Assembly (NCBI GenBank): GCA_052389275.1
Contig: JBQTID010000055.1
Span: forward strand, 1-63,334
Direction: 5' to 3'
Length of the DNA stretch: 63,334 nucleotides
DNA from: Gemmatimonadota bacterium
Lineage (GTDB): Bacteria; Gemmatimonadota; Gemmatimonadetes; Longimicrobiales; RSA9
The notes beneath the pieces were generated by a model that did not search any database, had not been told where the DNA came from, and saw only the letters and a program-made list of their open reading frames with translations. Numbering within the stretch: position 1 is the stretch's first letter; the number at the start of each line of letters is the position of its first letter. The position numbers were made by a program, and so were the translations under genes. Shown here in pieces: positions 2,718 through 63,203 of this stretch.

Positions 2718-4922
2718 GTGATACAGGGTCCGGATACGCCCTGGAGTGATGTCCTGCGCAGTCAGCTTACGTGGCAGTCGCTAGCAGCGGCTTCCACGTT
2801 ATTCTCGCTTGCCATTCGTCCTCGTCTGTTCGCGAATCGCGCCGAACAAACGCCGCAGGTTGCGCCGGATCGCCTGCGCGCGCTGCTCGACAAATCGTTT
2901 TCGGTCATGTGCATTGTCGATGGCATCGGCATTGTGCGCGCGATAACGCCGAATGCTGCGCACGTGCTCGGCGAGGCGTGCGATCGCGCAGCCGAGCTGG
3001 AGCTGGCGTTCGGGGAGCTGCTCCAAGCCGACCACCCCGAAGCGGTGCAAGCTGCGCTCGATGAGTTATCGCGCGCGGATGCAGCGGAGATGCGCACCTG
3101 GACTTTCCGAACCCGCGCACCGGACGGTACGCCGCGCCGGCTGGAAGCGGTCGGCACAAATCGTTTGTTCGATGCGGATATCACCGGCTTCACATTCGAG
3201 ATCCGCGACATAACCAAATCCTACGCCGCTCAGCAGCGCAATCGCATTTCGGGCACCGCTCTCGAACAATCTCCAGACAGTGTCATCATCACCAACGCCC
3301 AAGGCTTCATCGAATACGTCAATTCTGCATTCGAGAATTTGTCGGGGTATCGTTTGCCGGAACTGCGCGGCCGCACACCGGCGCTGTTGAAGTCGGACAA
3401 GCAGCCACCCGAAGTCTTCGAGCGCATGTGGCGCATACTGAAGGCGGGCAACGTATTCCGCGGTGAAGTCGCCAACCGCAAGAAGTCTGGCGAGATCTAC
3501 TTCGAAGACCTGATCATCGAGCCGATTCACGACGACCATGGGGTAGTGACCCATTTCATCTCGATTGGCCGCGACATTACCGAGAAGAAGCGCGCCGACA
3601 CGAACGCCGAAAGCGCGGCCTTCTACGATCCGATCAGCGGCATATCGACCTTCAAGCTGCTGCGCGAGCGGTCGCGTCAGATGCTGGCGCTCGCGCGTCG
3701 CCACGGTCATACCGCGGCGCTGCTGCATATCGACTTGAATGGGCTGCAAGCCGTCAACATCAGCCTCGGCCGCGAGGTCGGTGATGAGCTGTTACGCAAA
3801 TTCGCGGAACGCTTGAAGCAGGGGCTGCGCGAGAGCGATTCGATTGCGCGCCTGCACAGTGATGAGTTCCTGATCCTGCTCAGCGATGTCGCGGAGGAAG
3901 ATGCGACTGCTCGCGTGGTCCGCCGCCTGAAGGACAGCGTGAGTCGTCCGTTCCAGATCGGCTCGCATTCCGTCAACCTGGGCGCCAGCTTCGGTGTGTC
4001 TCTATACCCACAGGATGCGACGACCTTCGACGAGATGCTCGAGTATGCTTCGCTCGCAATGAAGCGCGCGCAGAGCAGTGGCAGCGGCTACGAATTCTAT
4101 CGCAAGGAGCTGACCGAGATCACCCTCGAGCGGCTCTCACTCGAAGACGATCTGCGCTGGGCCTGGGAACGCAAACAGTTCGTGCTGCACTATCAGCCCG
4201 TGATTGCGCTCTCCACGAACCGCATGATCGGCGCGGAAGCGCTGGCGCGCGGCCACATCATCGGCGCCGAAGCGCTGGCGCGCTGGCCGCACATGGAACG
4301 CGGCGAGATTTCTCCCGCGCAATTCATCCCGGTCGCCGAGCGCACGGGCCGCATTGTCGCACTGGATCGCTGGGCGATCGCGACTGCGACACGGCAGGCG
4401 GCCATGTGGTCACAGGAAGGCTGGCAAGGCTGGGTCTCCGTCAATTTGTCGGCGCGCTCGCTGCACGACGCGGACCTCCCCAGCTACATCGCGCGCTGCT
4501 TCGAGACGCACGGCCTGGAAGCCGGGCGCCTGGTGCTCGAGGTCACCGAGAGCGCGGCGATGCGCGATATCGAGATTACCGCGCGTATTCTCACGCAGCT
4601 GAAGCAGGCGGGCGCACTGATAGCACTCGATGATTTCGGCGTCGGGCATTCCTCACTTGCATACCTCAAGCATTTCCCGGTTGATCTGCTCAAGCTCGAT
4701 CACAACTTCGTGTCGGGCATTGGCTACGAGAAAAAGCACGAGCATCTGATCGAGACCATGATTACGCTGGCGCACCGGATCGGGGCGCAGGTCGTGGCGG
4801 AAGGCGTGGAGCAGGGCGAGCAACTGGATTGGCTGCGGTGCGCGGAATGCGACTATGTGCAGGGTTATTTGCTCGGCAGGCCGCAGCCGGCCGATGTTGT
4901 TTGGGGGAGCGTGGGAACATGA
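2718..4922 (+). CDS. PAS - degenerate GGDEF - EAL signalling protein (probable c-di-GMP phosphodiesterase)
   Basis: 734 aa ORF. PAS-like blocks (SPDSVIITNAQGFIEYVNSAFENLSGY). The GGDEF position reads HSDEF. EAL-domain blocks are present: EALAR, QFIPVAERTG, LEVTES, ALDDFGVGHSSLAYLK, AEGVE, QGYL. Confidence 0.85.
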   Translation: MIQGPDTPWSDVLRSQLTWQSLAAASTLFSLAIRPRLFANRAEQTPQVAPDRLRALLDKSFSVMCIVDGIGIVRAITPNAAHVLGEACDRAAELELAFGELLQADHPEAVQAALDELSRADAAEMRTWTFRTRAPDGTPRRLEAVGTNRLFDADITGFTFEIRDITKSYAAQQRNRISGTALEQSPDSVIITNAQGFIEYVNSAFENLSGYRLPELRGRTPALLKSDKQPPEVFERMWRILKAGNVFRGEVANRKKSGEIYFEDLIIEPIHDDHGVVTHFISIGRDITEKKRADTNAESAAFYDPISGISTFKLLRERSRQMLALARRHGHTAALLHIDLNGLQAVNISLGREVGDELLRKFAERLKQGLRESDSIARLHSDEFLILLSDVAEEDATARVVRRLKDSVSRPFQIGSHSVNLGASFGVSLYPQDATTFDEMLEYASLAMKRAQSSGSGYEFYRKELTEITLERLSLEDDLRWAWERKQFVLHYQPVIALSTNRMIGAEALARGHIIGAEALARWPHMERGEISPAQFIPVAERTGRIVALDRWAIATATRQAAMWSQEGWQGWVSVNLSARSLHDADLPSYIARCFETHGLEAGRLVLEVTESAAMRDIEITARILTQLKQAGALIALDDFGVGHSSLAYLKHFPVDLLKLDHNFVSGIGYEKKHEHLIETMITLAHRIGAQVVAEGVEQGEQLDWLRCAECDYVQGYLLGRPQPADVVWGSVGT

Positions 4923-4976
4923 GAACATGGGAGCATGGGTTTCGCGTTCCCATGCTGCCATGATCCCATGATCCCC
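4903..4976. repeat. period-8 inverted-arm hairpin (GGGAGCAT family) between convergent genes
   Basis: Left arm is GGGAGCGT GGGAACAT GAGAACAT GGGAGCAT GGG, loop TTTCGCGTT, right arm CCCATGCT GCCATGAT CCCATGAT CCCC. The stem is about 27 bp with 4-5 mismatches. The left arm contains the last codons and the stop of the EAL gene. Confidence 0.85.
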
Positions 4977-5855
4977 TCATCTCTCACTGATAGGGGCGGC
5001 TTCGGCCGCCTTTTTCTTTTCTTCCCGCTCTTTTTCCTTGCGCGCGCGAATCGCTTTCACTCGCTGATTGAAGCTCTGACGTCCGATCTCGGAGCTCGCC
5101 TGCCGCTCGATCTCGGCGAAATCGCGGTTGCGCGCGTTGATCTCATCGCGCCGGCCGTCGGGTGCCTTGAACGCGACCTGCGGCAACTTGATGTCGCCCA
5201 ATTGAATCGTGCCGTCCGGATTGATGCCCCAGCGCTTGCCGTCCTTGGTCTTGATCGTCCAGTCGAATGCGCGCCTGCGCGCCTCGGCTTCCGCAGCGAC
5301 CGAGTCGTGGTAGGCTCCCAGACTTTGCGCGATACGCGCGCGCACCGCCGCAGCGGGTGATGCATCCGGAGGCAGCGTGTAGCGCGCGCTACCGCTCAGA
5401 CGTGGGTCGATCGTGGTCGGCCGCAGGCGATCCGCCAGCGAGCCGCCCCGACCGCCGCCGTCATCGGCTGGCTCGACCGTTTCGGGACCCGGCGTAGCTT
5501 CCGGAATTCCTACAACCGGCCCCGGCGTCAGAATGACTTCCTCGGCGCCGGTTCGATCGCGATCCCGGTCTCGATCCCGACTCGATGCCGGCTCGACCGG
5601 CGCCGCAGTCTGTGGCATGCTGATGATTTGTGGCTCGTCTTCGGGAACCACAATCGTGATTTGCTCGAAGAGCTTGTGTGCGAGCGTTGGGATGAACGGT
5701 CTGGTTAGAAGGATCAGCAGCCCAATCGCGACGATATGAACAAGCACCGCGAGCGCGAGGGATGTTGGAGAGCGCGTGCCGCCCGGTTTGGTCGCGAGCA
5801 GCGTCCCGAACAAGCGGGGGCTGTCGGGTCTGCGCTTCTGTCCTTCTACAGCCAT
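4977..5855 (-). CDS. hypothetical membrane-anchored protein with Pro/Asp/Arg-rich linker
   Basis: 292 aa ORF with an N-terminal TM segment (LALAVLVHIVAIGLLILL), an RDRDRDRDR low-complexity linker and a Lys/Glu-rich C-terminus. I recognised no family. Confidence 0.5.
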   Translation of the reverse strand: MAVEGQKRRPDSPRLFGTLLATKPGGTRSPTSLALAVLVHIVAIGLLILLTRPFIPTLAHKLFEQITIVVPEDEPQIISMPQTAAPVEPASSRDRDRDRDRTGAEEVILTPGPVVGIPEATPGPETVEPADDGGGRGGSLADRLRPTTIDPRLSGSARYTLPPDASPAAAVRARIAQSLGAYHDSVAAEAEARRRAFDWTIKTKDGKRWGINPDGTIQLGDIKLPQVAFKAPDGRRDEINARNRDFAEIERQASSEIGRQSFNQRVKAIRARKEKEREEKKKAAEAAPISER

Positions 5856-7075: not shown

Positions 7076-7719
7076 CGCGCCTCGTCTTCGTGTGCAATTA
7101 CGGGATTCTGCACGGGCTCGAAACCGGCGATTTCGACTTCGACGACGTCGCCCGGATACAATTGGCCAACTCCTTCCGGCGTGCCGGTCGCGACAATGTC
7201 CCCGGGTTCGAGTGTCATGATGCGGCTGATGTATGAGATCAGCACCGGAATGCCGAACACCATGTCGTTTGCGCGCCCGTCCTGGCGCACCTCGCCGTTG
7301 ACTCTGCTAATGACTTCGAGATCGCGCCATTGCGTCACCTTGAAGAGCGGAATGATCTCCCCGATCGGGCAGAAGGTATCGTAGCCTTTCGCGCGCGTGA
7401 ATTGAACGTCCACGCGCTGCAAGTCCCGCGCGGTCACGTCGTTTACGGGCGCGTAGCCGGCGAGCACGTCCAGCGCTTCAGCCTCGGATACATTGTGCGC
7501 GCGCTTGCCGATCACGAGGCCGATCTCCCCTTCGTAATCGACTTGTTGCGAGTCGAGCGGCAACACGATGGACTCGCCATTCGAGATCACCGAGCTCGGC
7601 GGCTTGAGGAACAGCAACGGGCGTTCCGGTAGCTCATTGCCCAACTCGCGGGCATGCGCCGCATAATTACGGCCGACACATACGATCTTGGTCGGCCTGC
7701 GTGAGTTTCTGGTTACCAT
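7069..7719 (-). CDS. fumarylacetoacetate hydrolase (FAH) family protein
   Basis: Part of ORF 7069..7761. KIVCVGRNYAAHARELGN..RPLLFLKPPSS..DYEGEIGLVIG is typical of the FAH family. The preferred start, ATG at 7717-7719, overlaps the upstream TAA as TAATG. Confidence 0.8.
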   Translation of the reverse strand: MVTRNSRRPTKIVCVGRNYAAHARELGNELPERPLLFLKPPSSVISNGESIVLPLDSQQVDYEGEIGLVIGKRAHNVSEAEALDVLAGYAPVNDVTARDLQRVDVQFTRAKGYDTFCPIGEIIPLFKVTQWRDLEVISRVNGEVRQDGRANDMVFGIPVLISYISRIMTLEPGDIVATGTPEGVGQLYPGDVVEVEIAGFEPVQNPVIAHEDEARW

Positions 7720-10203: not shown

Positions 10204-10316
10204 GATAAGCGATAAGAGCGAGAAGAGCGATTAGAGCGATGGGAGCGTCGGTAACAGCGATAGTGTTTTCGTTCTCGCTCTTATCGCTCCAATCGCTCTC
10301 ATCACTTTTATCGCTA
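10204..10316. repeat. period-9 inverted-arm hairpin (GATAAGAGC family)
   Basis: Left arm is GATAAGC GATAAGAGC GAGAAGAGC GATTAGAGC GATGGGAGC. The right arm is GCTCTTATC GCTCCAATC GCTCTCATC ACTTTTATC, the reverse complement with 1-2 mismatches per unit. It includes the stop of the upstream gene and ends 8 nt before the dinG GTG. Confidence 0.85.
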
Positions 10317-11558
10317 GGTCTTCAAAGTCTTCTTCTTCGCCGCCGGGAAGAGGACGTTATTGAGAATCAGTCTGTATCCTGGCGAATGCGGGTGCAGATT
10401 GAGATCGGTCTGCTCGTCGCCGACCTGATGCTGCGGATCTTCCGGATCGTGTCCGCCCAGAAACGTCCAGGTGCCCTGGCCATAGGTACCGTGAATGTAT
10501 TTCGACCAGTTGGTGCCTTGTTCATCGGCGAGCACGATGACGCCGGGCTTCAGTCGGTCTTTGCGGAACGACGTCGTCAAGCCGTAGAAATCCGGAATCA
10601 CGTTCTCGTGATCCTGTACCAGCATGGCGGGCACGGGATCGAACTTCGGGCTGAAATCGAAGAGCGTGAACGAGCCGAGCGGCTGGCGCCAGGGTGTGTT
10701 GACCTGGTGACCGTCGATGTCGCTGAACGAGCTGATGGCCGCGTTGGTTTGAACTTCCGCATTCTGGAACGCCATGGTGCGAGCCCATTGCAACTTGCGC
10801 GATGCATTCGGATCCACGGGTGTGTCATCGCTGAAGGGCGCGGCTATGTCCACGTTGACCGCGGCGAGAGCAAGCTCGATGGTTTCGGTCGCCGTGCACA
10901 TCGCGAACAGGAAACCGCCTTCGGCAACATAACGCCGGATCTCCTCAGCAACCGACTTCTTCGCTGCCGGCACGTTCGCCAGTCCGAACTCCTGCGCGAT
11001 GGCCCGGTTCTGTTGTACCGCTTGAACCAGCCACGTCGCACCCGCGTAATTGATGTAGAACTTCGAGTACTGGCCGGTGAAATCTTCGTGATGCAGGTGC
11101 AGCCAATCGTAATTCTTCAACCGACCTTGTAGCACTTCACGATCCCATACTTTGTCGTACGGGACATCGGCGTACGTGAGGGCGAGGGTGACCGCGTCGT
11201 CCCACGGGTTCACGTTGTCGGGCGTATAAACCGCGATCTTCGGCGCCTTCTCGAGGATCACGCTCTCCATATTCGACTCGGCTACCGTGTTGCGAATCTG
11301 CGCGAGCTGTCCTGCTGTTAGCGCTTCGAAGCTGACGCCGCGCAACGCGGCTTCACGCCTGACATCAGCGCGGTCCGGCAGCAAAAACGCGCCTGAGCGA
11401 TAGTTGAGCAGCCACTCGGCGGTGAGCGCGCGGTCCAGCACCCAGTACGTCAGGCCGTAGGCCTTCAGGTGATTCGCCTGGGCGTTGTCCATTGGCACGA
11501 GCAGCTGCGCGTGCGCTCGCGTGGTCGCGGCCATCAGCGCCGCGCACACCAACATCAT
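10314..11558 (-). CDS. conserved secreted protein of unknown function
   Basis: Part of ORF 10314..11576. Signal peptide MMLVCAALMAATTRAHA. The ATG at 11558 is preferred, because the GTG at 11576 lies inside a repeat. I could assign no confident family. Confidence 0.6.
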   Translation of the reverse strand: MMLVCAALMAATTRAHAQLLVPMDNAQANHLKAYGLTYWVLDRALTAEWLLNYRSGAFLLPDRADVRREAALRGVSFEALTAGQLAQIRNTVAESNMESVILEKAPKIAVYTPDNVNPWDDAVTLALTYADVPYDKVWDREVLQGRLKNYDWLHLHHEDFTGQYSKFYINYAGATWLVQAVQQNRAIAQEFGLANVPAAKKSVAEEIRRYVAEGGFLFAMCTATETIELALAAVNVDIAAPFSDDTPVDPNASRKLQWARTMAFQNAEVQTNAAISSFSDIDGHQVNTPWRQPLGSFTLFDFSPKFDPVPAMLVQDHENVIPDFYGLTTSFRKDRLKPGVIVLADEQGTNWSKYIHGTYGQGTWTFLGGHDPEDPQHQVGDEQTDLNLHPHSPGYRLILNNVLFPAAKKKTLKT

Positions 11559-11568: not shown

Positions 11569-11607
11569 CTTCTCACAATCTCACCTTCTCACAGCTCACA
11601 CACTCGC
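11569..11607. repeat. single-arm period-8 array (TGTGAGNN type)
   Basis: The minus strand reads GCGAGTGT GTGAGCTG TGAGAAGG TGAGATTG TGAGAAG. It fills the spacer between the TPR gene stop (11612) and the next gene start. Confidence 0.7.
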
Positions 11608-11611
11608 AACG

Positions 11612-18454: not shown

Positions 18455-18632
18455 GGTCGCGGGCGCGGACGCTGGCGCGGGCCGCGGGAAACCTGCGGGC
18501 GCGGGGCGCGGGCGCCGGCGCGGGAATGCCGGGTAGCGGGCGCCCGCTATCCCGGTTTGCCACGCCCGCGCCCGGAACCCGCGACCCGCTTAGTTTCCCG
18601 CGCCCATGACCGCGCCCGCGACCGCGCCCGCT
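18455..18632. repeat. GC-rich palindromic element (GCGGGCGC / GGGAA family)
   Basis: The left half is rich in GCGGG/CGCGGGAA and the right half in CCCGC/TTCCCGCG. A perfect palindromic centre, TAGCGGGCGCCCGCTA, sits at 18534-18549. It shares GGTCGCGGGCG with the elements at 43154 and 50938. Confidence 0.8.
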
Positions 18633-23312: not shown

Positions 23313-23367
23313 TAAGCATGGGAGCATGGGAGCATGGGAGCATGGGAGCATGGGAGCGTTGGTGAGC
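23313..23367. repeat. tandem octamer array (GGGAGCAT) x4 perfect plus degenerate flanking units
   Basis: The sequence reads TAAGCAT GGGAGCAT x4 GGGAGCGT TGGTGAGC. It lies in the divergent region between the clpB start (23302) and the lipoprotein gene (23431). Confidence 0.9.
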
Positions 23368-24014: not shown

Positions 24015-24092
24015 ATTGGGAGTATGGGATCATGGGAGCATGGGTGTGTGTTCGTCATGATCCGATGTCTCCCATGCTCCTCACCATTCCCA
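24015..24092. repeat. period-8 inverted-arm hairpin (GGGAGCAT family)
   Basis: Left arm is TGGGAGTA TGGGATCA TGGGAGCA TGGG. Right arm is CATGATCC GATGTCTCC CATGCTCC TCACCATTCCCA. Several pairing registers are possible. Confidence 0.8.
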
Positions 24093-24172
24093 CTCGATGG
24101 TCGCTGGCAGCTTCAGCTGATGTCGTAGCACAACACAACGGAAGCTCACGCGCTTATTCGTGAATGGAAGCT
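24083..24172 (-). pseudogene. decayed duplicate of the guaA 3' end
   Basis: CCATTCCCACTCGATGGTCGCTGGCAGCTTCAGCTGATGTCGTAGCACAACAC aligns with the true guaA end at 24245-24300 (CTATTCCCATTCAATTGTAGCTGGCGGCTTCGAGCTGATGTCGTAACACACAC). It carries substitutions and a 1-nt indel. Confidence 0.75.
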
Positions 24173-24239
24173 GGGAACATGCCATGCTCCCATGCTCCCA
24201 TGCTCCCATGCTCCCATGCTCCCATGCTCCCATGATGCC
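24173..24239. repeat. tandem octamer array (ATGCTCCC) x6 perfect, preceded by one inverted unit GGGAACAT
   Basis: 24184-24231 holds six perfect ATGCTCCC units, the exact reverse complement of the array at 23320-23351. The array ends 5 nt before the guaA stop codon. Confidence 0.9.
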
Positions 24240-27051: not shown

Positions 27052-27052
27052 G

Positions 27053-36471: not shown

Positions 36472-36506
36472 GCGCTATCGCTATCGCTATCGCTGTCCCT
36501 ATTCGC
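36472..36506. repeat. tandem hexamer array (GCTATC) x3 plus variants filling the mreB-mreC spacer
   Basis: GCGCTATCGCTATCGCTATCGCTGTCCCTATTCGC. The minus strand reads (GATAGC)n directly abutting the mreC GTG. Confidence 0.8.
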
Positions 36507-36507
36507 T

Positions 36508-37585: not shown

Positions 37586-37590
37586 GCAAA

Positions 37591-37811
37591 TCGAGAACCT
37601 CGGTTTAGAACTTCGGTTTAGAACTTCGGTTTAGAACTGCGGATTAGAACTGCGGATTAGAACTTCGGTTTAGAAAGGCGGCAAAACCGGTAATCCGGTT
37701 TTCTAATCCGATTTTCTAAGCCGGTGTTCTAATCCGGTGTTCTAAGCCGGTGTTCTAATCCGGTTTTCTAAGCCGGTGTTCTAATCCGGTTTTCTAATCC
37801 GGTGTTCGAGA
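37591..37811. repeat. 220-bp inverted-arm hairpin built from 13-nt tandem units (TTTAGAACTTCGG)
   Basis: Left arm has 7 units (37591-37681), the loop is CAAAA, and the right arm has about 9.5 units of CCGGTGTTCTAAT/CCGGTTTTCTAAG (37687-37811). Units pair at 11 of 13 positions with a recurring 2-nt mismatch. Confidence 0.9.
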
Positions 37812-37813
37812 TC

Positions 37814-43137: not shown

Positions 43138-43153
43138 CCGGCCTGGAACGAAT

Positions 43154-43329
43154 GCGGGCGCGGTCGCGGGCGGGGGCGCGGGCGCGGGAACTAACTCGGG
43201 CGCGGGTGGCGGGCGCGGGCTGCGGGCGCGGCCCGCTGCCCAAACCATGACCACGACCCGCGCCCGCGACCCGCTAACCGCGAACCGCGTCGTTTCCCGC
43301 GCCCGCGCCCCCGCCTGCGCCCCCGCCCG
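43154..43329. repeat. GC-rich palindromic element (GCGGGCGC / GGGAA family) overlapping the ribF 3' end
   Basis: The left half is GCGGGCGCGGTCGCGGGCGGGGGCGCGGGCGCGGGAA.. and the right half is its imperfect reverse complement (..TTTCCCGCGCCCGCGCCCCCGCC). Bases 43156-43190 are 34/35 identical to 50978-51012. Confidence 0.85.
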
Positions 43330-45421: not shown

Positions 45422-45699
45422 TGGAAATATCTCTGGCTGTCGATGATTCGGGCGCGGTCTTCTGTGCCCACCAGATCATCCGCGTTCTGCAATACTGATT
45501 CCGCTACCCTTTTGTCCGAGGCAACCACGCATGCACTGAGCTCGGCGCGCTGCCAGAGATCCTGGTGGCCGGTTTCCGCGGCTGAAACGTTGAATCGGTC
45601 GTGGAGACGGTCTTTAAGACTCTTCACCACAGACCGCTTCTCTTTTAACGATTGCGCACCCAGGATTTCCAATTCCCAGCTGATTACGCCTATAACCAT
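45418..45699 (-). CDS. DUF503 (YlxP-like) protein
   Basis: Part of ORF 45418..45738. The preferred start is the ATG at 45697-45699 (MVIGVISWELEILGAQSLKEKRSVVKSLKDRL). The longer TTG-start version begins inside the repeat. Confidence 0.75.
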   Translation of the reverse strand: MVIGVISWELEILGAQSLKEKRSVVKSLKDRLHDRFNVSAAETGHQDLWQRAELSACVVASDKRVAESVLQNADDLVGTEDRARIIDSQRYFQ

Positions 45700-45776
45700 G
45701 AGAGAATGTGGGATTGTGGGAGTGTGTGAGTGTGGCAAACATCCATCTCACATTCCCACATTCTCACACTCACTCC
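45700..45776. repeat. period-8 inverted-arm hairpin (GTGAGTGT/GGGAGTGT subfamily)
   Basis: Left arm is GAGAATGT GGGATTGT GGGAGTGT GTGAGTGT GG. Right arm is CTCACATT CCCACATT CTCACACT CACTCC. It contains the infB stop (45770-45772) and abuts the DUF503 ATG. Confidence 0.85.
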
Positions 45777-48436
45777 TGTGCCGAGGCCGCCAGGGAACGT
45801 GCCACACTTTCCACCTTGAACGTTTCGATATGATCGCCAATCTTCAGATCATTGTAGCCTTCCACGCTCATACCACACTCGAAGCCTTCACGGACTTCCT
45901 TCACGTCATCCTTGAAGCGGCGCAGGCTCGACAAACCACCCAGATAGACCTGCACGCCGTCACGCACTACGCGCACCTGGCTCTTGCGATCGATGACGCC
46001 TTCGGTAACCATGCAGCCCGCGACCGTGCCGAACTTCGGCACCTTGAACAGCTGGCGGACTTCGGCAACGCCGACCAGCACTTCGCGCTCTTCCGGTGCG
46101 AGCATGCCTTCCAGCGCGGAACGGACTTCTTCGATCGCCTCGTAGATGATGTTGTACTGGCGAATGTCCACGCCTTCACGCGCTGCGGTCGCCCGCGCTT
46201 CCGCAGTCGGCCGCACATGGAACCCGATGATGATCGAGCCCGAGGACGCCGCGAGCAGTACGTCGGACTCGTTGATCGCGCCGACACCGCGGTGAATCAC
46301 GTCGACCTGAACTTCATTGGTCGAGAGTTGGCCCAGTGCGTCGGACAGCGCCTGAACCGAGCCATCCACGTCGCCCTTGATGATCAGGTTCAGATACGCA
46401 GTCTGACCCTGCGCGAGCAGCTTGCTGATATCCGTCAGCTTGACACCGCGGCTCTTGACGCGCAGCTGCTTCTCGCGCTCCAGGCGGTGGCGCGTCTGCG
46501 CGATCTCGGCAGCCTTGACCGCATCCATGACCAGCAGCACATCGCCGGCCTGCGGCACACCCGGCATGCCGAGCACCTGAACCGGCACGCCCGGACCCGC
46601 TTCCTTGACCGTCTTGCCGCGCTCATCTAGCAGTGCGCGCACGCGTCCGTCGTAATGGCCGCACACGAACGCATCGCCGACGCGCAGTGTGCCGTTGGTC
46701 ACGAGCACGGTTGCGACCGGGCCCTTACCAATGTCGAGCAGCGCTTCGACCACGATGCCGTTCGCCGGCCGATCCGGATTCGCCTTGCGGTCGAGCACTT
46801 CCGCCTGTAGCAGCACCTTGTCGAGCAGATCGCTGATACCGTTGCCCTTCTTCGCGCTGACTTCCGCGGACAGCACGTCACCACCGAAGTCTTCAACGAC
46901 GACGCCATGCTGCAGCAATTCCTGTTTCACCTTCGATGGATTCGCCGCCGGCAGATCGACCTTGTTGATCGCGACGATCATTGGCACGCCTGCGTTCTTC
47001 GCGTGACTAATCGCTTCGACCGTCTGCGGCATGACCGAGTCATCCGCTGCAACCACGAGGATTACGATGTCGGTGACTTCGGCGCCGCGCGCACGCATTG
47101 CGGTGACCGCCGCGTGACCCGGCGTATCGAGGACCGTGATCGAACGGCCGTCCTCGAGCTTCACGTGATACGCACCGATGTGCTGCGTGATACCGCCGGA
47201 TTCACCCGCGATGACGTTGGTCTTGCGCACATAGTCGAGCAGTGACGTCTTGCCGTGGTCTACGTGGCCCATGACCGTAACGATCGGGGGACGCGGCTTG
47301 AGATCTTCCGGCTTGTCTTCTTCGACCGCGCTGTCGGCTGCCTCGGACGTGTATTCCGTCTCGCGCACCGCGCGGAAACCGAATTCGTCGAGCAGCAGCT
47401 CGATTTGATCGAAGTCCAGACGCTGGTTGATGGTGACCATCAGCCCCAGATTCTTGAACGCGCTGCCAATGATCTCGGTCGGGCTGTGGTCGATCAGCTC
47501 CGCGATCTCCGCAACCGTGAGGAATTCGTTGACGCGAACCGTCTCCGCTTCCTCGACTGCACGCCGCTGGCGCTCGGCCTCCATCTCGACGCGGCTCGGA
47601 GCTTCTTCGCGGCGGTGCTTCTTCTTCTTGCCGCCGCCCTTCAGCTCCGCCAGCACGCGATTGATGTTCTCCTGAACTTCTTCCTGATCGACCTTGCGCT
47701 GCTTCTTCTTTTTCTTATCGGGCTTGCCGCCGGCGCCGACCGCGGGCTTTGCGCCCTGCGTCGCCTTGCGGCCATCGGAAGTGAAGCCTTCCGCCTGGAT
47801 GCGCACGTGACCACCCGGACCCGCGCTGGCAGCCGGACGTTGTTCGGTGGGCCGCTGCGGCCGCGCCGGCCGATCCTGCCGCTGCTGAACCGCACGTTGC
47901 GGCGGCGGCGGCGGCTGGCGCGGCTGCGTCCAGCCCAGGACTTCGGCGGCTCGCCGCAGCTTGGGTTTTTGTTCAGCCGTGATCTCGCGCTTCGCCGGTG
48001 CTGCTGGCCCCTCTTCGGTCGGCGCTTCCGCGCCAGCTTCCGCAGCAGGTGCCTCGATCGGCTCGGGCTTCTCGGGGAACAGGTCTTCCAGCTTCGGCTT
48101 TTCGGCGAGCGGACCGGTGAAAATGTCCGTCTTTGCAACCGGCTCCGCGACCGGCTCGGCCTCCGCCTCCGCGACCGGCTCGGGTGCCGGCGGCAGGTCT
48201 TCCTTCCTGCGACGACGCCGCTTGGTGGGCTGCGCATCCTCGATCACCGTATCGATCGCTTCGGCTTCGTCGTGGCCGGCTCGGCGCTCGCGCTCGAAAC
48301 GCGCACGCAGCTTGGCAACAGTTGCGTCGTCGACAGCGGTTGCTTCGCTGCGGATGGCGACGCCCATGCTGCGCAACAGCTGCGTCAGCTTTTCGGGATC
48401 GATCTTGAATTCTCTTGCTACTTCGTAAACGCGCAT
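45770..48436 (-). CDS. infB: translation initiation factor IF-2
   Basis: 888 aa with a low-complexity N-terminal region, a GTPase domain ([21 protein letters not shown]) and conserved C-terminal domains. Confidence 0.95.
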
Positions 48437-48451: not shown

Positions 48452-48523
48452 GAGATTATGGGAGTGTGTGAGTGTGAGAGGGTGTGATCCCACACTCTCA
48501 CTTTCCCGTGTTCTCAAACTCCC
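48452..48523. repeat. period-8 inverted-arm hairpin (GTGAGTGT/GGGAGTGT subfamily)
   Basis: Left arm is GAGATTAT GGGAGTGT GTGAGTGT GAGAGGGT GTG. Right arm is CACACTCTCACTTTCCCGTGTTCTCAAACTCCC. The right arm encodes the last ~8 codons and the stop of the L7Ae-like gene. Confidence 0.85.
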
Positions 48524-50821: not shown

Positions 50822-50855
50822 GCAAATAAAAAAGTGGGGGCGCGTCCCCCCACTT
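50822..50855 (-). terminator. strong rho-independent terminator / leader attenuator upstream of rimP
   Basis: The minus strand reads AAGTGGGGGGA CGCG CCCCCACTT followed by TTTTTATTT. Confidence 0.7.
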
Positions 50856-50937: not shown

Positions 50938-51168
50938 GCGGGCGAGGGCTTGGGCGAGCAACTCGGGAAACAAACTCGGGCGCGGTCGCGGGCGGGGGCG
51001 CGGGCGTGGGAAGCAACGCGGTCGCGGGAGGCGGAGCGCGGGTCGAGGTCGTGGGCAAGGGTGGCCTGTCCAGCGCGACCGCGCCCGGGACGCGCAACCC
51101 TCGATCCGAAAGTGTCCCGCGCCCGCGACCACGCCCGCGACCGCGACCGCGACCGCGACCGCGACCGC
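50938..51168. repeat. GC-rich palindromic element (GCGGGCGC / GGGAA family) ending in (GACCGC) x6
   Basis: The left half has GGGCGCGGTCGCGGGCGGGGGCGCGGGCGTGGGAA. The right half has TCCCGCGCCCGCGACCACGCCCGC followed by GACCGC x6. It starts directly after the stop codon of the OsmC-like gene. Confidence 0.85.
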
Positions 51169-51624: not shown

Positions 51625-52673
51625 GGCAGTTCTTTCCAGATGTTCGGATCCTCTGGTCCGAGAACCCAGACGCTGAAGCCGCGCAGATTCTTCCTGCGCA
51701 TCAAGTCGAGTTTTGCCGCGAAGCTGCGCGCGTCCTCCACGAACAGATACTCGAATGTGCCTGCGACCGGATAAAAGGTATAGGAGACCTTGTGCTCGTC
51801 GTGCCAGGTCAGCTGCGCGCCGTTTCGTTCGGCGAGGTGGCGCGCCCAGTTGTAGCTGACGTTCTGGCTGTAGGAGCGCGCCAGCTCCGGCGTGATACGG
51901 TCTTCCTGCGAGGTGTACCAGTGCATGCTGCCGACGGGAATCCCGAGCGACAGCTTCCCCGCAGGCATGAACTTCAGAAAGTAGTCGACGACGTCTTCCG
52001 CCCAGGGCAACGCCGAACTCGGCCCGGGTGGCGTGCGGCGCGTGTGCTGCGAGTAGCTCATCACCGAAATGAAATCACCGGCGTCGGCAAGTGCCTTCAG
52101 GTCGTAGCCGCCGCGCCAGTCCGCCATCATCCAGGCGTGATACTGTGACACGCCCGCGACTTCTTCCGGCCGGTGCACGACCGCAATGCTGATGATCCTG
52201 CCGGCCGCATGCATCGCGTTAGCAGCCTCGCGGTAGAACGACGTCAAGGCATCACGATCGTCGATGCTGACGTTCTCGAAATCGATCTGCATGCCCCAGT
52301 AGTCGTGTCGTTTGCTCAGCTCGACCATCGAAGCGATCGCGCGTGCGCGCGCGGCCGGACTGCTGAGCAGCTGATGCAGCAGGTCCTTGTCGAACGGCCG
52401 GTTCACGAGCAGTGGCATGACGCGCACGTTGTGGTGTCTGGACAGCTCGAGGACTTTCGGATCGACGTCGCCCCAGACAATGCCCTGCTCATCGACTCCG
52501 TAGGACGAGGGCGCAATCACACTGATTTGCGAGGCGTGCTGGACGAAGCTGTTGTAGGCGTCTTCGCGGTCGACGTAGTAGAAGATGCGCTCGAAACCCT
52601 GCGCTTGAGACACCGCGGTCCCGCCGGCGGCGAGAGCCAGCAGGACCGTGGCGATGCGTAGTTCAATCCGCAT
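51621..52673 (-). CDS. secreted glycoside hydrolase family 18-like protein
   Basis: 350 aa with a signal peptide (MRIELRIATVLLALAAGGTAVSQA). GMQIDFENVS matches the D-x-E end of the GH18 catalytic motif. Its stop overlaps the OsmC-like start (ATGA). Confidence 0.7.
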   Translation of the reverse strand: MRIELRIATVLLALAAGGTAVSQAQGFERIFYYVDREDAYNSFVQHASQISVIAPSSYGVDEQGIVWGDVDPKVLELSRHHNVRVMPLLVNRPFDKDLLHQLLSSPAARARAIASMVELSKRHDYWGMQIDFENVSIDDRDALTSFYREAANAMHAAGRIISIAVVHRPEEVAGVSQYHAWMMADWRGGYDLKALADAGDFISVMSYSQHTRRTPPGPSSALPWAEDVVDYFLKFMPAGKLSLGIPVGSMHWYTSQEDRITPELARSYSQNVSYNWARHLAERNGAQLTWHDEHKVSYTFYPVAGTFEYLFVEDARSFAAKLDLMRRKNLRGFSVWVLGPEDPNIWKELP

Positions 52674-52677
52674 AGCG

Positions 52678-53994: not shown

Positions 53995-54001
53995 CCTCGT
54001 G

Positions 54002-57000
54002 TCAGTAGGTGAGCCGCACGCCGAAGCCGATCGTGCGCGCGTTCGGGTACACGGCGAAGTCGGTGCCGCGCTCGACGGTGCTCAGGCCGAACATGTTGAT
54101 TTCCGGATCGTAGCCGCCGTAATCCGTCCAGGTCTTCAGGTTGCGGCCAACCAACTCGAACTCCGCGCGGCTCGCGCCCACCGCACGCAACCAGGGCGCG
54201 GCCGTGCTGTAGCGGACGGTTATATCGCGCATTTTGATATAGGAAGCATCCTCGAGGTAATTCTCCCAGATGCTCTGAAGCCGTGTGCGCTGGGCTGGCG
54301 TCGCCTCGCCACGCAGCACCTGATCGAACAGCGGACCCGCGCCGAAGATGTCCTGATTGCGGCGTGTCTGATTCCACAGCTCTGCGCCAAACGAGCCATC
54401 CAGCAGGAACGAAGCACTCCAATTGCTGCCGAACCTGAACTCATTGAAGAGCGAACCGGTCCAGTCCGGCCACGGATTGCCGACAATACGCGAAGTCGAG
54501 TTGGGCAGACAGAACTGCGGCTCCGGGCACGTGGTGCCGAGGCGGTTCTCGAGCCGCGGTCCGTCGATGGCGGTATCCATTACGATTTGCCCACTCTCGT
54601 CACGCATGAAAGCAGGCATGAAGTGCACGCCAACCGGCTGACCCTCGATCACGAGGTTCGTGTAGCCGGCTGTGAAAGGCAGCACATTGAGCTTCTCGAT
54701 CCTGTTCTCGTTGCGTGAATAAATGACCCGCGAATTCCAGCTGAAGCTCCCGCGTGTCAGGTTTTGCGTATTCAGCTCGAGCTCGATGCCTCTGTTACTC
54801 AGCTCACCGACGTTATCGAGAATGCTACCAAAACCCGCGCTCGGTACGAACGGCCGCACCAGGAGCAGGTCTGTCACGTATTGATCGTAATAAGTGAAGC
54901 GGGTGCCGATGCGATTGTTCAGCACGGCGAAGTCGACACCTGCCTCCCATTCGCGCTGACGCTCTGGCTTGAGCTCGGGGTTGCCCGGCGAGTTCAGCGG
55001 CACCAGCCCCAGGCGTGTAACGTTTGTTATCGACCCGAAGCGAGATACGCGCGCGAATGCTTGTGAGAGCGGCGGCTGGTTACCGGCATACCCGAGTGCA
55101 CCGCGCAGCCGGAGCTCGGAAACCCAAGGCACGGCGTCGCGTACGAATGATTCCTCTGAGGCCACCCACGATGCGCTCACCTTCGGGTAAATTTGCCAGC
55201 GCTCGTCTTCGCCGAATGTCGAGGAAGCATCCCAGCGCAGAGCGCCGGTCAGGTAGAGGCGATCATCGAACGACAGCTGCTGCTGGCCAAAGAACCCGAG
55301 CGTCACAAGCTCGATGCGTGCCTGGTCGGCGCGGTGTACGGCGCCACTCACCAGATCGGTCTGCGGAACCAGGTCCGTGGCCGATGCGTTGAGCTGATCC
55401 AGACGCTGATACGTGTGATTCAGTCCCGCGGATGACGTGAAGCGCAGCTGCTGCGAGCCGAAGTCGTAGCTTGCAGCAAGGTCGTTGTTCAGCAGGATAT
55501 TGCGCCGATTGGCGGAAGTCGCACTACCAAGCGGCGTGCCGACGGTGCCGCGCGGAATCGACAGCATCGTTTCCATCGCATACTGGTCATAGCCGAGAGT
55601 GTAATTCAAACGAAGCGAGCCGAACGGATTTGACCGCGCCTGAAATGACCCGACGAATCGGTTAATGTCCTGCGGACTCGAGAACGTCTCGAGCACGTAC
55701 AGCGGATTCAGGAACACACCTGCCTGTCTATTCACGAACTCGCCCGTGACCGGGTCGCGTGCCGTCAAGTCAATCGTGGTCGGTGCAAACACCGCCGCAG
55801 TAAGCAGACCGCCCGAGCCTTGCTCGCCGTTGATGACCAGATCGGTATGCGAGCGAATGTAATTCGCACCTGCGGCGAGGTTCAGCCAATCCGCGACCTT
55901 CTGGTCGATATTCATCCGGACATTCAGCTTCCTGTGATCGGAGCCACGCATGATGCCGTTTTCGTTCGCGAGATTGCCGGAGATGTAGTACTGCGTCTCC
56001 GGGCTGCCGCCGGAAACGGACAAATACGTGTCGGTGCTCCAGGGCTCACGGAAGAGCAGCGGCTGCGGGTCGAAGCGCGGCGCGCTAATGGTACCCGAGT
56101 TCAAGCACGTCGGACACAGTCCCAGGTCCAGATTGGTCGGGGTCAGCGCAAATTCAATTGTGCGCTCGAGGTCATTGCGCGTCATCCGCGTGCCGGCCAC
56201 CACGCGATTAATGCCTGCTCTACCGCGCTTGGTGAAGATCTGCACGACGCCGTTGTTCGCGCGCGAGCCATAGAGCGCAGCTGCGGCTGCCCCTTTGAGG
56301 ATCTCTACACGTTCGACGTCGTCGGGATCTAGATCTGCGAGACGGTTCGACGGATTCGAGCGATAACCGAAGTTGATCTGCTGATCGGCGTTATTGTCTA
56401 TGATGACGCCGTCCACAATGATCAATGGTTCTGCGCCCGCGACGATCGAGCTGGTGCCGCGCAAACGCATGGACACGCCGCCACCCGGATTGCCGGTGTT
56501 GCTGGTAATCGTGGCGCCCGCAACTTTGCCCTGAAGCGCCTGGTCGATGGTAGTCGCGGTCGCTTCCGAGATCTGTTCACTCGAGACGGTCGATACCGCG
56601 TTTCCCAGTGCGCGCCGAGCAGTCGGCGCGGCCGTACCGGTGACCACCACTTCTTCTAGTGCAAGCACAGCCTGACCGAGCTCGAAATCGGGAACGTCGA
56701 CGACACGCGCAGCGCCAAGCGTGATCGATCGCCGCTGTTGCTCACGTCCGATCATCGTCGCTTCCACGACGTACTGGCCGGGATTCAGCTGCGCCACTAT
56801 CGAATACACGCCATCGGCATTGGTCAGTCCGCCATAGCGCGTGCCCCGGATCGCAACCTGCACGCCCGGGATCGGCGCGTCACCTTCGACCGCAAGCGCA
56901 CGACCCGTAATCGTGTAGGTCGCCTGCTGCGCGCTGGTCGGGTCTGCCACGATAACGCTCCCCAAAATGCACAGCATCAGGCACGCGAATGTCACGCGAC

Positions 57001-57007
57001 GACTCAT
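54002..57007 (-). CDS. SusC/RagA-type TonB-dependent transporter with CarboxypepD_reg-like N-domain
   Basis: Part of ORF 54002..57214, with the start at the ATG 57005-57007 (MSRRVTFACLMLCILGSVIVADPTSAQQ). ITGRALAVEGDAPIPGVQVAIRGT, a plug domain (EEVVVTGT..ILKGAAAAALYGSRANNGVVQIFTKRG) and a C-terminal ..FGVRLTY. Confidence 0.85.
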   Translation of the reverse strand: MSRRVTFACLMLCILGSVIVADPTSAQQATYTITGRALAVEGDAPIPGVQVAIRGTRYGGLTNADGVYSIVAQLNPGQYVVEATMIGREQQRRSITLGAARVVDVPDFELGQAVLALEEVVVTGTAAPTARRALGNAVSTVSSEQISEATATTIDQALQGKVAGATITSNTGNPGGGVSMRLRGTSSIVAGAEPLIIVDGVIIDNNADQQINFGYRSNPSNRLADLDPDDVERVEILKGAAAAALYGSRANNGVVQIFTKRGRAGINRVVAGTRMTRNDLERTIEFALTPTNLDLGLCPTCLNSGTISAPRFDPQPLLFREPWSTDTYLSVSGGSPETQYYISGNLANENGIMRGSDHRKLNVRMNIDQKVADWLNLAAGANYIRSHTDLVINGEQGSGGLLTAAVFAPTTIDLTARDPVTGEFVNRQAGVFLNPLYVLETFSSPQDINRFVGSFQARSNPFGSLRLNYTLGYDQYAMETMLSIPRGTVGTPLGSATSANRRNILLNNDLAASYDFGSQQLRFTSSAGLNHTYQRLDQLNASATDLVPQTDLVSGAVHRADQARIELVTLGFFGQQQLSFDDRLYLTGALRWDASSTFGEDERWQIYPKVSASWVASEESFVRDAVPWVSELRLRGALGYAGNQPPLSQAFARVSRFGSITNVTRLGLVPLNSPGNPELKPERQREWEAGVDFAVLNNRIGTRFTYYDQYVTDLLLVRPFVPSAGFGSILDNVGELSNRGIELELNTQNLTRGSFSWNSRVIYSRNENRIEKLNVLPFTAGYTNLVIEGQPVGVHFMPAFMRDESGQIVMDTAIDGPRLENRLGTTCPEPQFCLPNSTSRIVGNPWPDWTGSLFNEFRFGSNWSASFLLDGSFGAELWNQTRRNQDIFGAGPLFDQVLRGEATPAQRTRLQSIWENYLEDASYIKMRDITVRYSTAAPWLRAVGASRAEFELVGRNLKTWTDYGGYDPEINMFGLSTVERGTDFAVYPNARTIGFGVRLTY

Positions 57008-57210
57008 TTGGGCTCCTATCGGTGGAAATACAACGGTCGCACGACCTTCGTGCTGGCCGCGGCTGAAATGGAGGATAAACATATGGTAGGGCGCGCCGCC
57101 CAGCAGCGCAATCACTCCTGGCGATCGACCCGAATCGGCACATAGCCGGCACACCGCAGGACCGGCAGCGGCGGGTATTTGGGAAAGCGCGGATCCGTCT
57201 TCGATAGCTC

Positions 57211-57244
57211 GCAAAGCAAAAAGCGCGAGCCGCGCTTATTTTCG
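57211..57244 (-). terminator. candidate bidirectional hairpin terminator after pgeF
   Basis: AAGCGCG AGC CGCGCTT (57221-57237) is flanked by a T/A-rich run on each strand, about 50 nt downstream of the pgeF stop. Confidence 0.5.
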
Positions 57245-61939: not shown

Positions 61940-62860
61940 TTGCGCGCTCTGGTGCTGGTGGGCAGCGCCGCGCTGATGGTTCTGCTTCTGCCGGACGCTG
62001 CACTGGCGTTCGGCCCCGCGACCCACGTCTACCTGGGCTCTCACCTGCTGGACACGCTGACGCTGCTGCCGCGCACACTCGCCGATCTGCTGCGTGCGCA
62101 TCCACAGAGCTTTCTATACGGCTCGATGGCGGCCGACATCTCGTTCGCAAAGAAGTACGTGCCCGCAGGGCGGCACTGTCATTTCTGGCATGTCGGCGAG
62201 GAAATTCGCGAAGCCGCGCCCAACGACCGCACGCGCGCCGTCGCCTTCGGCTACCTCGCGCACCTCGCGGCCGACACCATTGCACACAACTACTTCGTGC
62301 CGCGCCAGCTGCTGCTGACCAGCAGCACGAAAGCACTTGGCCACGCGTACTGGGAGCATCGGCTGGACGTACAGCTCGGCGCGCCCTACACAACGCTGGC
62401 CCGTGAGGTCGTGCTCGATTACGATCACTCAGAAGCAGACCATCTGTTCGACAGCGTTTTGAGCGGCACCATTTTTTCCTTCGAGACGAACCGTCGAATC
62501 TTCCGAGGTATGATCCGCTTTCAGGACAACGACCGCTGGCATGCCATTCTCGGCCGCACCATCCAGAGCTCCCGTTGGGGACTCACCGATGCGACCATGG
62601 AAGCGTACCTGTCGCGCGCGTTCGAGTTTATGGTCGATTATCTGCTGCGCGGCCGCGACTCGATGGCCGCGGCGTTCGATCCGGTCGGTGATTTCAATCT
62701 TCAGCTCGCCAAAAAAGTGCGCCGCCTCGCTATGCGAGAAGGCGCTCTGTCTCAGCCACAGCTACTGCACGAGATGGCAGACGACTTCTTTCCATTGCCG
62801 ACTCCCACCACGAGCTATTGGAAGGATGCGGCCAAAGGTGTCGGCGTCTCCAAGGTTTAA
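61940..62860 (+). CDS. zinc-dependent phospholipase C-like family protein (start uncertain: 61940, 61952 or 61976)
   Basis: Part of ORF 61844..62860. Signal-like ALRALVLVGSAALMVLLLPDAALA, then FGPATHVYLGSHLL..YGSMAADISF..FGYLAHLAADTIAHN..GHAYWEH with His-rich metal-binding motifs. Confidence 0.55.
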   Translation: MRALVLVGSAALMVLLLPDAALAFGPATHVYLGSHLLDTLTLLPRTLADLLRAHPQSFLYGSMAADISFAKKYVPAGRHCHFWHVGEEIREAAPNDRTRAVAFGYLAHLAADTIAHNYFVPRQLLLTSSTKALGHAYWEHRLDVQLGAPYTTLAREVVLDYDHSEADHLFDSVLSGTIFSFETNRRIFRGMIRFQDNDRWHAILGRTIQSSRWGLTDATMEAYLSRAFEFMVDYLLRGRDSMAAAFDPVGDFNLQLAKKVRRLAMREGALSQPQLLHEMADDFFPLPTPTTSYWKDAAKGVGVSKV

Positions 62861-62863
62861 TTG

Positions 62864-63203
62864 TCACCGCAGAGCACGCAGAACACGCTGAGACGCTTCG
62901 GTGCATCCGCAAATGCGCCGTACATACTGTCATTCAGATTTTGGCGATGAGGGGATGGAAACGGCGATATTGGCGATGCATCGTCGGCGGCCGGTGACTC
63001 TCTGTGCATACCTGCTTCAGTTTTTATTGTATTTACCGCTGCGCGGGCTTCTATGATCTAGCGATACCTGGAACGGTTTTCAAACTCAAGTAAAGATGTT
63101 TGCCGCGCGGGCATGCGGCGGATTTACGACACAGCATCGCCATAATCGCCGTTCAAATCCCCTTATCTCCTATGCTCTGCGAGTTCAGCGGGCTCTGCGG
63201 TGA
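62864..63203. repeat. compound nested inverted repeat with AT-rich ~150-bp core (MITE-like or structured-RNA-like)
   Basis: Outer arms are TCACCGCAGAGCACGCAGAACACGCTGAGAC and its imperfect reverse complement ..GCTCTGCGAGTTCAGCGGGCTCTGCGGTGA. Inner arms are GGCGATGAGGGGATGGAAACGGCGATATTGGCGATGC and GCATCGCCATAATCGCCGTTCAAATCCCC. Both arm pairs show 9-nt periodicity. The core at 62981-63133 is visibly lower in GC. Confidence 0.8.

Follow-up and report, generated by a model that had tools for sequence, protein, structure and literature searches.

Tandem-repeat hairpins with mirrored arms in the intergenic spacers of a Longimicrobiales subclade (Gemmatimonadota)

In a 63,334-nt stretch of DNA from a Gemmatimonadota soil bacterium (GenBank assembly GCA_052389275.1, contig JBQTID010000055.1; Longimicrobiales, RSA9), which was analysed over its whole length and is called the window here, intergenic spacers carry runs of short tandem units followed, at most sites, by runs of their reverse complements, so that the two runs can pair as the arms of a long hairpin. 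The architecture is of a known kind, the type of inverted simple sequence repeats or of STRR (short tandemly repeated repetitive) elements. New here are the phylum, the coexistence of many units (mostly octamers), the very long composite elements, a sharp phylogenetic onset, the turnover of the unit at a fixed position, and the change of both arms together.

Mirrored arrays in the spacers of the window

Tandem arrays were detected with Tandem Repeats Finder (TRF), and the reverse complement of each array was aligned to the 200 nt on either side of it (mirror test). TRF returned a tandem array at all 14 coordinates given in the initial annotation, which had assigned a single construction to them. 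That description fits 10–11 of the 14, which are arrays with an inverted mirror arm; the other three (11569, 23313 and 36472) are direct arrays in which the mirror test found no inverted arm. Mirror scores were 26–77 at eight strict sites (4912/4948, 10208/10275, 18461/18598, 24017, 37594/37691, 43154/43254-43329, 45707/45749 and 50978/51117), against at most 19 for the other arrays of the window, apart from one array in infB that scored 24. Convergent complementary arrays, and with them stem-loop potential, are found at these eight sites and also at 24173, 48452 and 62864, where a mirrored arm is present outside the strict set. Thirty dinucleotide-preserving shuffles of the window yielded a mean of 0.1 mirrored pairs (maximum 1), compared with eight observed. 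In an inverted-repeat search, the 18 longest inverted repeats of the window all fell at seven of the listed sites, one inside infB excepted, often in several registers, as is expected because the arms are tandem. RNAfold predicted long imperfect hairpins (−27 to −224 kcal/mol for the segments folded). By TRF, the mirror test, the inverted-repeat search, folding and shuffling alike, the annotated micro-repeat arrays mirrored by an inverted arm are real.

Units range from 6 to 14 nt, 8 nt being the commonest length; TRF periods were 6, 7, 8 or 9 at most sites, 13 at 37591, and 14 in one relative (L081). All mirrored arrays lie in spacers, many of them abutting or including a stop codon, and the strong arrays of period 7, 8, 13 or 19 are likewise all in spacers. 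Arrays inside genes have a period that is a multiple of three or comprise just ~2 copies, with the exception of an 11-mer repeated 3.3 times (5560–5596) in a doubtful open reading frame (ORF). The placement described in the initial annotation was borne out: arrays begin at or inside a stop codon or the last codons of the upstream gene (4903, 10204, 36472, 43154, 45700 and 50938), some end at or near the next start codon (36472, 45700 and 11569), and they are non-coding and adjoin stops and starts within operons (nusA-ylxQ-infB-ylxP-rbfA-truB-ribF-rpsO and mreB-mreC). Arrays encode the C-terminal residues of the EAL protein and of RibF, abut or include four stop codons (OsmC-like gene, infB, mreB and the gene at 10314), and end at the ylxP and mreC start codons.

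Short reads assemble repeats and palindromes poorly, and arrays of this kind could in principle be produced during assembly. We give this almost no credence. Three independent assemblies of one relative (L084–L086, ~99.7% identical) carry identical arrays, which are therefore neither assembly artefacts nor hypermutable; the architecture recurs in independent NCBI, ENA, JGI and Logan assemblies; most arrays are shorter than a read; and the flanks are syntenic and in frame. The Rfam search proposed in the initial annotation gave no match at gathering thresholds in the whole window, and none at E ≤ 1 in 62800–63334; a search of the window for tRNA and tmRNA genes returned none. A clustered regularly interspaced short palindromic repeat (CRISPR) array was ruled out, since the units are 6–14 nt long and contiguous, with no spacers, as opposed to 24–48-nt repeats separated by unique spacers. 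Intrastrand-triplex motifs (PMC4666352) were also considered and dropped, the arms being neither homopurine nor homopyrimidine.

Table 1. Repeat elements of the window and one adjoining terminator.
Element	Positions	Strand	Composition	Context
Octamer hairpin	4903..4987		GGGAGCGT/GGGAACAT/GAGAACAT/GGGAGCAT, 12-nt loop, then CCCATGCT/GCCATGAT/CCCATGAT	PAS-GGDEF-EAL gene ends in the 5′ arm (final 6 codons and stop 4920-4922)
Canonical terminator	4992..5020	+	Hairpin and T-tract	Directly 3′ of the 4903 repeat hairpin, separate from the repeat
Period-9 hairpin	10204..10318		GATAAGAGC, 4-5 units per arm	Stem holds stop TAG (10314-10316) of the upstream minus-strand gene; ends ~8 nt before the DinG-like helicase ORF start (10196)
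Direct-only array	11571..11611	-	GTGAGAAG/GTGAGATT x2.9, no inverted arm	Fills the 35-nt spacer between two minus-strand genes
GC-rich palindromic family copy	18455..18631		GCGGGC/GCGGTC units	Past the thioredoxin terminator (18666-18640, minus strand), ahead of the TP_methylase start (18424)
Direct-only perfect array	23315..23357		(GGGAGCAT)x5.4	Divergent spacer, 13 nt upstream of the clpB GTG start; not at the same place in relative L144
Octamer hairpin	24015..24092		GGGAGTAT/GGGATCAT/GGGAGCAT vs ~3 inverted units	Comes after a degenerate duplicate of the guaA 3′ end (24078-24140)
Perfect array with short inverted arm	24165..24236	- (guaA sense strand)	(GGGAGCAT)x6.6, then ~1 inverted unit	Starts 13 nt past the guaA stop
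Direct-only array	36473..36507	-	(GATAGC)x5.7	Fills the spacer from mreB stop to mreC start
Period-13 hairpin	37590..37812		6.3 vs 9.0 units, each arm homogenised to its own variant; 26-nt super-period in 3′ arm; small perfect central hairpin AAAACCGG TAAT CCGGTTTT	Between dut (stop 37814) and mreB
GC-rich family copy	43154..43329			Between ribF and rpsO; overlaps the last ~19 ribF codons (tail GGGAGGGAGAG...)
Octamer hairpin	45697..45778		GTGAGAAT/GTGGGAAT...	Stem from infB last codons and stop (45770-45772) to the ylxP/DUF503 ATG (45699-45697)
Short hairpin	48455..48500		GAGTGTGT-type units	Lies at the stop of ylxQ (L7Ae-like); infB ATG ~20 nt further on
GC-rich family copy	50975..51168		(GCGGTC)n	(GCGGTC)n abuts the OsmC-like stop (51169-51171); conserved canonical terminator (50855-50832, minus strand) further downstream
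Composite nested element	62864..63203		Outer 9-mer arrays (CGCAGAGCA) and inner GGCGAT-type arrays, each mirrored, around ~120 nt of unique sequence; nested long-range inverted repeat, not a simple hairpin	Flanked by convergent ORFs with stops at 62858-62860 (PLC-like) and 63214-63216 (minus strand)

Two loci of Table 1 deserve a further remark. About 63 nt of the guaA 3′ end (...PATIEWE) are duplicated (24078–24140 and 24236–24300, ~80% identity); the duplication includes the octamer array that follows, and the copies now differ in arm copy numbers. The element at 62864 was considered as an insertion between gatB and the PLC-like gene, which is the arrangement in the relatives, and this was rejected, as the right-hand ORF is not gatB.

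Persistence and unit turnover among relatives

Syntenic loci were fetched for NusA relatives at 95–84% identity, together with one GuaA relative at 86% (L144). These were found by NusA and GuaA protein searches; an infB scan of GTDB gave relatives at ≤67% identity and Bacteroidota, which served as outgroups. The same architecture is present in relatives whose NusA is 89–95% identical (L081–L088). No such element occurs in 64 kb from three relatives with NusA identities of 84–87% (L141–L143), in which infB is followed by an 18-nt spacer, a canonical terminator or a plain G-first hairpin, and none was found in six Gemmatimonadaceae loci (~130 kb). The bloom, at about one element per 5–10 kb, is confined to one Longimicrobiales subclade, at places where outgroups have ordinary hairpins.

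A tandem-arm hairpin occupies the spacer between infB and ylxP in the window and in all four subclade relatives with a contig that spans it, and six lineages have six different units there: GTGAGAAT-type with period 8 in the window, GATAAGAGC with period 9 in L083 (NusA 95%), a GGGGCG-type unit in L081 (92%), GGGGAAAC in L087 (90%), GGGGTAGA / CTCCACTC in L088 (89%), and CGGGTGT with period 7 in a Gemmatimonadaceae metagenome-assembled genome (L009). In the five Longimicrobiales sequences the conserved ylxP start, ATGGT(C/T)AT, is overlapped by the end of the hairpin or follows it closely. Pairing of a stop codon with the next start could keep a terminating ribosome close to a start that has no Shine-Dalgarno sequence, and such translational coupling has been suggested for cyanobacterial STRR hairpins (PMC2670836). 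The infB–ylxP stem, which in the window and four relatives extends from the infB stop up to or across the ylxP ATG, would suit this role, and no Shine-Dalgarno-like sequence precedes that ATG; rimP has GGAGG. Many elements, however, lie between convergent or divergent genes or beside terminators (4903, 18455, 23313 and 62864), the mreB–mreC array is direct only, and L141 couples infB and ylxP through its 18-nt spacer without a hairpin. Coupling is a very unlikely account of the elements.

Occupancy varies at other spacers. Between ylxQ and infB, L082 and L083 have a few nucleotides and no element, and unrelated units make up the elements that lie there in the window, L084 and L088; an element lies between the conserved flanks of the OsmC–rimP spacer in the window, L083 and L087, but not in L081, L082 and L088. 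L084 has a further repeat hairpin (GGGGATACA-type, ~7230–7330) between the conserved terminator and the rimP leader, so insertion positions within one spacer vary between relatives.

Arms also change together. The hairpin that follows the trx terminator is orthologous in the window (18455–18631) and in L144 (8205–8445): GCGGGC/GCGGTC units pair with GCCCGC/GACCGC in the former, and GAGGGC/AAGGGC/AGGTCG units pair with GCCCTC/GCCCTT/GACCTC in the latter. Both arms at this site have changed unit in step, and complementarity has been kept.

Outside the phylum, five Bacteroidota loci (L024, L026, L062, L068 and L071) show the same construction with AT-rich units (such as AATTGAGAGCTGAG and AGTTTATG), mostly with the G arm first, and in L062 a tandem-arm hairpin stands directly after infB. 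A paper on the Bacteroides transcriptome (PMC7366714) makes no mention of such hairpins. A metagenome scan for (GGGAGCAT)x3 returned 52 contigs of mixed GC content (0.32–0.68) and origin, few of them with a mirrored arm (L110, L121 and L126), and is uninformative on this genome.

Known hairpin repeats and the possible origin of the elements

The initial annotation did not recognise a described class, yet comparable elements are on record. Rehm et al. (2015) counted 70–75 convergent inverted GGGAATC array pairs with stem-loop potential per Xanthomonas genome; these are intergenic, lie near stop codons and are transcribed, no function has been assigned to them, and their length and sequence differ between close species while the pair type is kept (PMC4692102). 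In Xanthomonas and Nostoc a single heptamer (GGGAATC or GGGGA(C/T)T) dominates the genome and four copies are preferred, which was argued to reflect G-quadruplex (G4) formation (PMC4692102). The elements described here share with these the 6–9-nt tandem units, the strong non-coding bias and the G-rich arm in first place. They differ in that many units of 6–14 nt (mostly 8) coexist, about half of them without G4 capacity; in that elements reach ~190–340 nt and one family is a dispersed composite palindrome; and in the host phylum, Gemmatimonadota, with similar cases in Bacteroidota. In PMC2670836, STRR hairpins between cyanobacterial genes are called 'not unusual', as in hupS–hupL, and roles in transcript stability, translational coupling and pausing or termination are suggested. 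Short tandem units in hairpin-capable intergenic and intercistronic spacers are common to both; the STRR sequences belong to a few genome-wide heptamer families, in contrast to the unit turnover at a fixed position, the 6–14-nt periods and the very long arms found here. At least eight unrelated units occur within the 63 kb, and orthologous spacers hold different units, so the elements are not built from a few genome-wide units.

The G-rich arms could themselves be G4 repeats, acting as G4/hairpin switches on transcription or translation as has been proposed for the GGGNATC repeats of Xanthomonas and Nostoc. The corresponding pattern (at least four tracts of three or more G, 1–7 nt apart) fits (GGGAGCAT)n, (GCGGGC)n and the other GC-rich arms of the window, and (GGGGAAAC)n, (GGGGTAGA)n and (CGGGTGT)n in relatives, and related heptamers form G4 in vitro (PMC4692102). 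About half of the units are nevertheless incapable of it, namely GATAAGAGC, GATAGC, TTTAGAACTTCGG, GTGAGAAT, GAAGATTT, TCACAGGATCGCAG and the AT-rich Bacteroidota units; within the window the 13-mer and the arms at 45700 and 48452 do not fit the pattern. The G-tracts are moreover sequestered in a paired hairpin, and no regulatory role was found in Xanthomonas (PMC4692102). We attach little weight to this explanation.

Contrary to the initial annotation, units are not strictly specific to their loci. The three GC-rich sites of the window (18455, 43154 and 50938) are copies of one dispersed element of ~190 nt and make up a family with a conserved palindrome: with positions 1–215 of L083 they align over ~200 nt, with variant units in the same order and the landmark GGGAA-CTAAC, and BLAST aligned 43154 with 50938 over 58 nt (90% identity, E 1e-12) and with L083 over 37 nt (97% identity). 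The unit GGGAGCAT occurs at four sites (4903, 23313, 24015 and 24173), GATAAGAGC is common to 10204 in the window and the non-orthologous infB–ylxP spacer of L083, and the elements at 45700 and 48452 have 23 nt in common at 96% identity.

Repetitive extragenic palindromic (REP) sequences and the BIME and REPIN elements of Proteobacteria are extragenic imperfect palindromes that stabilise upstream mRNA against 3′ exonucleases, and each REP family has one conserved 20–40-nt palindrome and is linked to RAYT transposases. The elements of the window resemble them as extragenic palindromes in 3′ untranslated regions (UTRs) and between cistrons, with one dispersed GC-rich family, and differ in that most arms are microsatellite-like, with differing units, and that no RAYT is known for them; a shared palindrome of REP type was found in the GC-rich family alone (three window copies and L083), the other sites being without one. 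In a MITE (miniature inverted-repeat transposable element) of Porphyromonas gingivalis, defined ends surround a direct minisatellite (PMC4596501); this element is likewise small, non-coding and from the Fibrobacterota-Chlorobiota-Bacteroidota (FCB) group, with inverted repeats and tandem units, whereas here the tandem units themselves form both inverted arms. Miniature mobile DNA of REP/REPIN or MITE type, inserted into spacers by a transposase encoded elsewhere, with the tandem units of the arms a secondary trait, would account for the dispersed family, for units shared by non-orthologous loci, and for ylxQ–infB and OsmC–rimP spacers that are filled in some relatives and nearly or wholly empty in others. 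Comparison of filled and empty spacers by eye, however, revealed no target-site duplication, at boundaries blurred by low complexity, and no terminal inverted repeats distinct from the arrays were seen. Most units occur at one locus only, with no further copy of the 37591, 62864 and 10204 elements as such in any fetched sequence, none of the 20 flanking window proteins scanned has a transposase or RAYT domain, and a fixed hairpin position with a changing unit would need repeated replacement at one spot. A mobile origin is unlikely.

Terminators, too, invite comparison, being G-first hairpins directly after genes and probably the seeds from which the elements grew. A terminator consensus scan listed none of the repeat hairpins as terminator-like, and strong canonical hairpin-plus-T terminators adjoin three of the sites, after the 4903 hairpin (4992–5013, plus strand), before the 18455 element (minus strand) and after the 50938 element (minus strand); the repeat hairpins are therefore not the terminators. 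We rejected an identity of the two, since the repeat hairpins have stems of 25–90 bp and no T-tract and the canonical terminators stand separately alongside. The terminator upstream of rimP is kept in all relatives, with or without a repeat hairpin. After guaA in L144 (3246–3450), a canonical bidirectional terminator occupies the loop between octamer arrays (GCGTTTGG, GGCGTAGA) and their mirror arm; if it works, the two arms are not on the same transcript.

The explanation we favour, and to which we give about an even chance, is that the elements grew at the DNA level from ordinary hairpins, through slippage and the copying of one arm onto the other, and that stable RNA stem-loops are a likely consequence. 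The seed would be an ordinary intergenic hairpin, such as a terminator or attenuator stem with its G-rich arm first. Replication slippage would multiply a stem-sized piece within each arm, and template switching between the arms of the quasi-palindrome would keep them complementary while the unit drifts. Further copies would be added by segmental duplication and, for the GC-rich family, also by spread to new loci, and the elements would survive only where nothing is encoded, leaving spacers filled from stop codon to next start. Once transcribed, they would fold into very stable stem-loops, not terminators themselves, which would most likely serve as 3′-exonuclease barriers and insulators in 3′ UTRs and between cistrons. 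Processes of this kind are established: in quasi-palindrome template-switch mutagenesis each arm of an imperfect inverted repeat can serve as template for the other, and in vitro polymerases lengthen short palindromic repetitive oligonucleotides by 'hairpin elongation'. Both are mechanisms and not element families, and we infer their action at the loci of the window.

Several observations agree with such growth. The positions of repeat hairpins in the subclade are taken by a plain G-first hairpin in outgroups, the L144 arrays are mirrored around a canonical terminator, and small near-perfect hairpins lie at the centres of 18455, 37591 and 43154. Slippage-type expansion, already proposed in the initial annotation, fits both the unequal arms (6.3 vs 9.0 units at 37591; 6.6 vs ~1 at 24173) and the stretches in which every unit is the same; arrays of 5.4, 6.6 and 10 perfect copies stand beside degenerate partner arms. 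By-eye inspection at infB of whether units were seeded from the gene's own last codons was unconvincing, and this idea was set aside. In all 18 mirrored pairs (window, subclade loci and L009) the 5′ arm has more G than C and a surplus of purines, and in the 3′ arm both relations are reversed. The initial annotation had tied this polarity to the transcript sense. A reverse-complemented hairpin keeps the polarity, which therefore holds on both strands and is no evidence for the transcribed strand, so the polarity stands and its link to transcription does not. Plain terminators of the lineage are likewise G-first, so seed hairpins may have passed the polarity on; selection might also favour it, since Rho would have access to a C-rich, G-poor arm that emerged first. 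A role as RNA stem-loops is plausible, with support from the occupied infB–ylxP spacer and the coordinated arm changes; translational coupling at ylxP, with its lack of a Shine-Dalgarno sequence, may be among the functions.

Other findings weigh against this explanation. G·U pairs are not enriched on the sense strand (44, vs 61 antisense), and the order of unit variants in the arms pairs no better than random permutations. Slippage is not fast, given that copy numbers are the same in three near-identical populations. Local slippage does not by itself explain why identical units recur at non-orthologous loci or how the GC-rich family came to be dispersed, and presence varies among close relatives at ylxQ–infB and OsmC–rimP. 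The 18455 element lies after a terminator, and the L144 terminator in the loop would split the arms between transcripts; with elements after or around terminators, an RNA role is unproven and cannot be universal.

Several of these points would suit functionless by-products: the subclade might fail to remove palindromes and arrays, for instance through altered hairpin processing or repair, and they would accumulate wherever selection allows. Presence/absence polymorphism, the lack of G·U strand bias and of fine compensation between arms, surplus units without a partner, locations on either side of canonical terminators, last codons of genes overwritten by arrays and the sharp restriction to one lineage are all in line with this. 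It sits less well with the infB–ylxP spacer, which is occupied by differing units in the window and all four covering subclade relatives, and with trx-site arms that change in step; the strict polarity in 18 of 18 pairs would need a separate explanation, which inheritance from G-first seeds could supply. We regard passive accumulation as possible, though well short of an even chance.

Neighbouring genes and implications

Searches with InfB and NusA assign the window to Longimicrobiales; it has a GC content of 62% and genes mostly on the minus strand. An exact-sequence look-up of the S15 protein returned no record. By Pfam matches and synteny, the genes flanking the elements encode a PAS-GGDEF-EAL protein, a DinG-like helicase, thioredoxin, a TP_methylase, ClpB, GuaA, MreB, MreC, dUTPase, RibF, S15, IF2, DUF503/YlxP, L7Ae-like YlxQ, NusA, RimP and an OsmC-like protein. 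The clpB ORF (20213–23302, minus strand; 1029 aa) extends without a frame change through what in L144 is a gene of its own (144 aa), to which its last ~135 residues are 53% identical; the explanation is a gene fusion, the loss of a stop codon or an error in sequencing. The 292-aa ORF at 4977–5855 (minus strand) is a doubtful gene call; it has no Pfam match, contains 11-nt tandem repeats at 5420–5447 and 5560–5596, and overlaps the plus-strand canonical terminator at its 3′ end. Near rimP (50700–50830) the conserved terminator reads AAGTGGGGG...CCCCCACTTTTTT. In five relatives (L081, L082, L083, L087 and L088) ~110–130 nt separate this terminator from the rimP start and hold a leader hairpin that is conserved among them (GCGGTG.CCG...CGGTGACCGCAT) as well as a strong GGAGG site, and the rimP ORF call in the window (TTG at 50825) is probably ~30 codons too early. 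A leader upstream of rpsO (GGCTTCC...GACT.TCGAGGAGGC.GGCC..ATGG) is conserved in the window (43027–43150), L081, L087, L088 and L141–L143; it has no Rfam match at the gathering score and may be an S15 autoregulatory structure. Between ribF and rpsO, L081 alone has an ORF of the PDDEXK_3 nuclease family on the opposite strand (17069–17386). A cluster resembling a polysaccharide utilization locus (TonB-dependent receptor/SusC, SusD-like protein and GH18; 51621–57214), identified by synteny with L081, lies beside the rimP-nusA operon.

Elements of this kind distort gene calls, through spurious ORFs that run through arrays, C-terminal codons derived from arrays and starts called inside arrays, and they may hinder metagenome assembly. 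Hairpin-forming short tandem repeats have long been known in cyanobacteria and Xanthomonas. The onset of the bloom between ~87% and ~89% NusA identity means that sister genomes with and without the elements can be compared for causal repair or replication genes, the infB–ylxP hairpin with its differing units and the in-step trx arms separate persistence of structure from persistence of sequence, and unit turnover and in-step arm change make the model of a seed hairpin with slippage testable. A stronger version, which we think rather improbable, is that a lineage mechanism actively renews intergenic hairpins, by arm expansion and arm-to-arm copying, and that the hairpins are the lineage-specific punctuation of operons. 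If this were true, structure and G-first polarity would outlast the sequence at fixed operon positions, with turnover within ~5% NusA divergence; the hairpins would be exonuclease barriers that also hide the C-rich arm from Rho; and renewal would operate, more sparsely, in other FCB-group bacteria as well. The elements would then form a self-maintaining class of cis-elements defined by structure, which is more than an accumulation of microsatellites.

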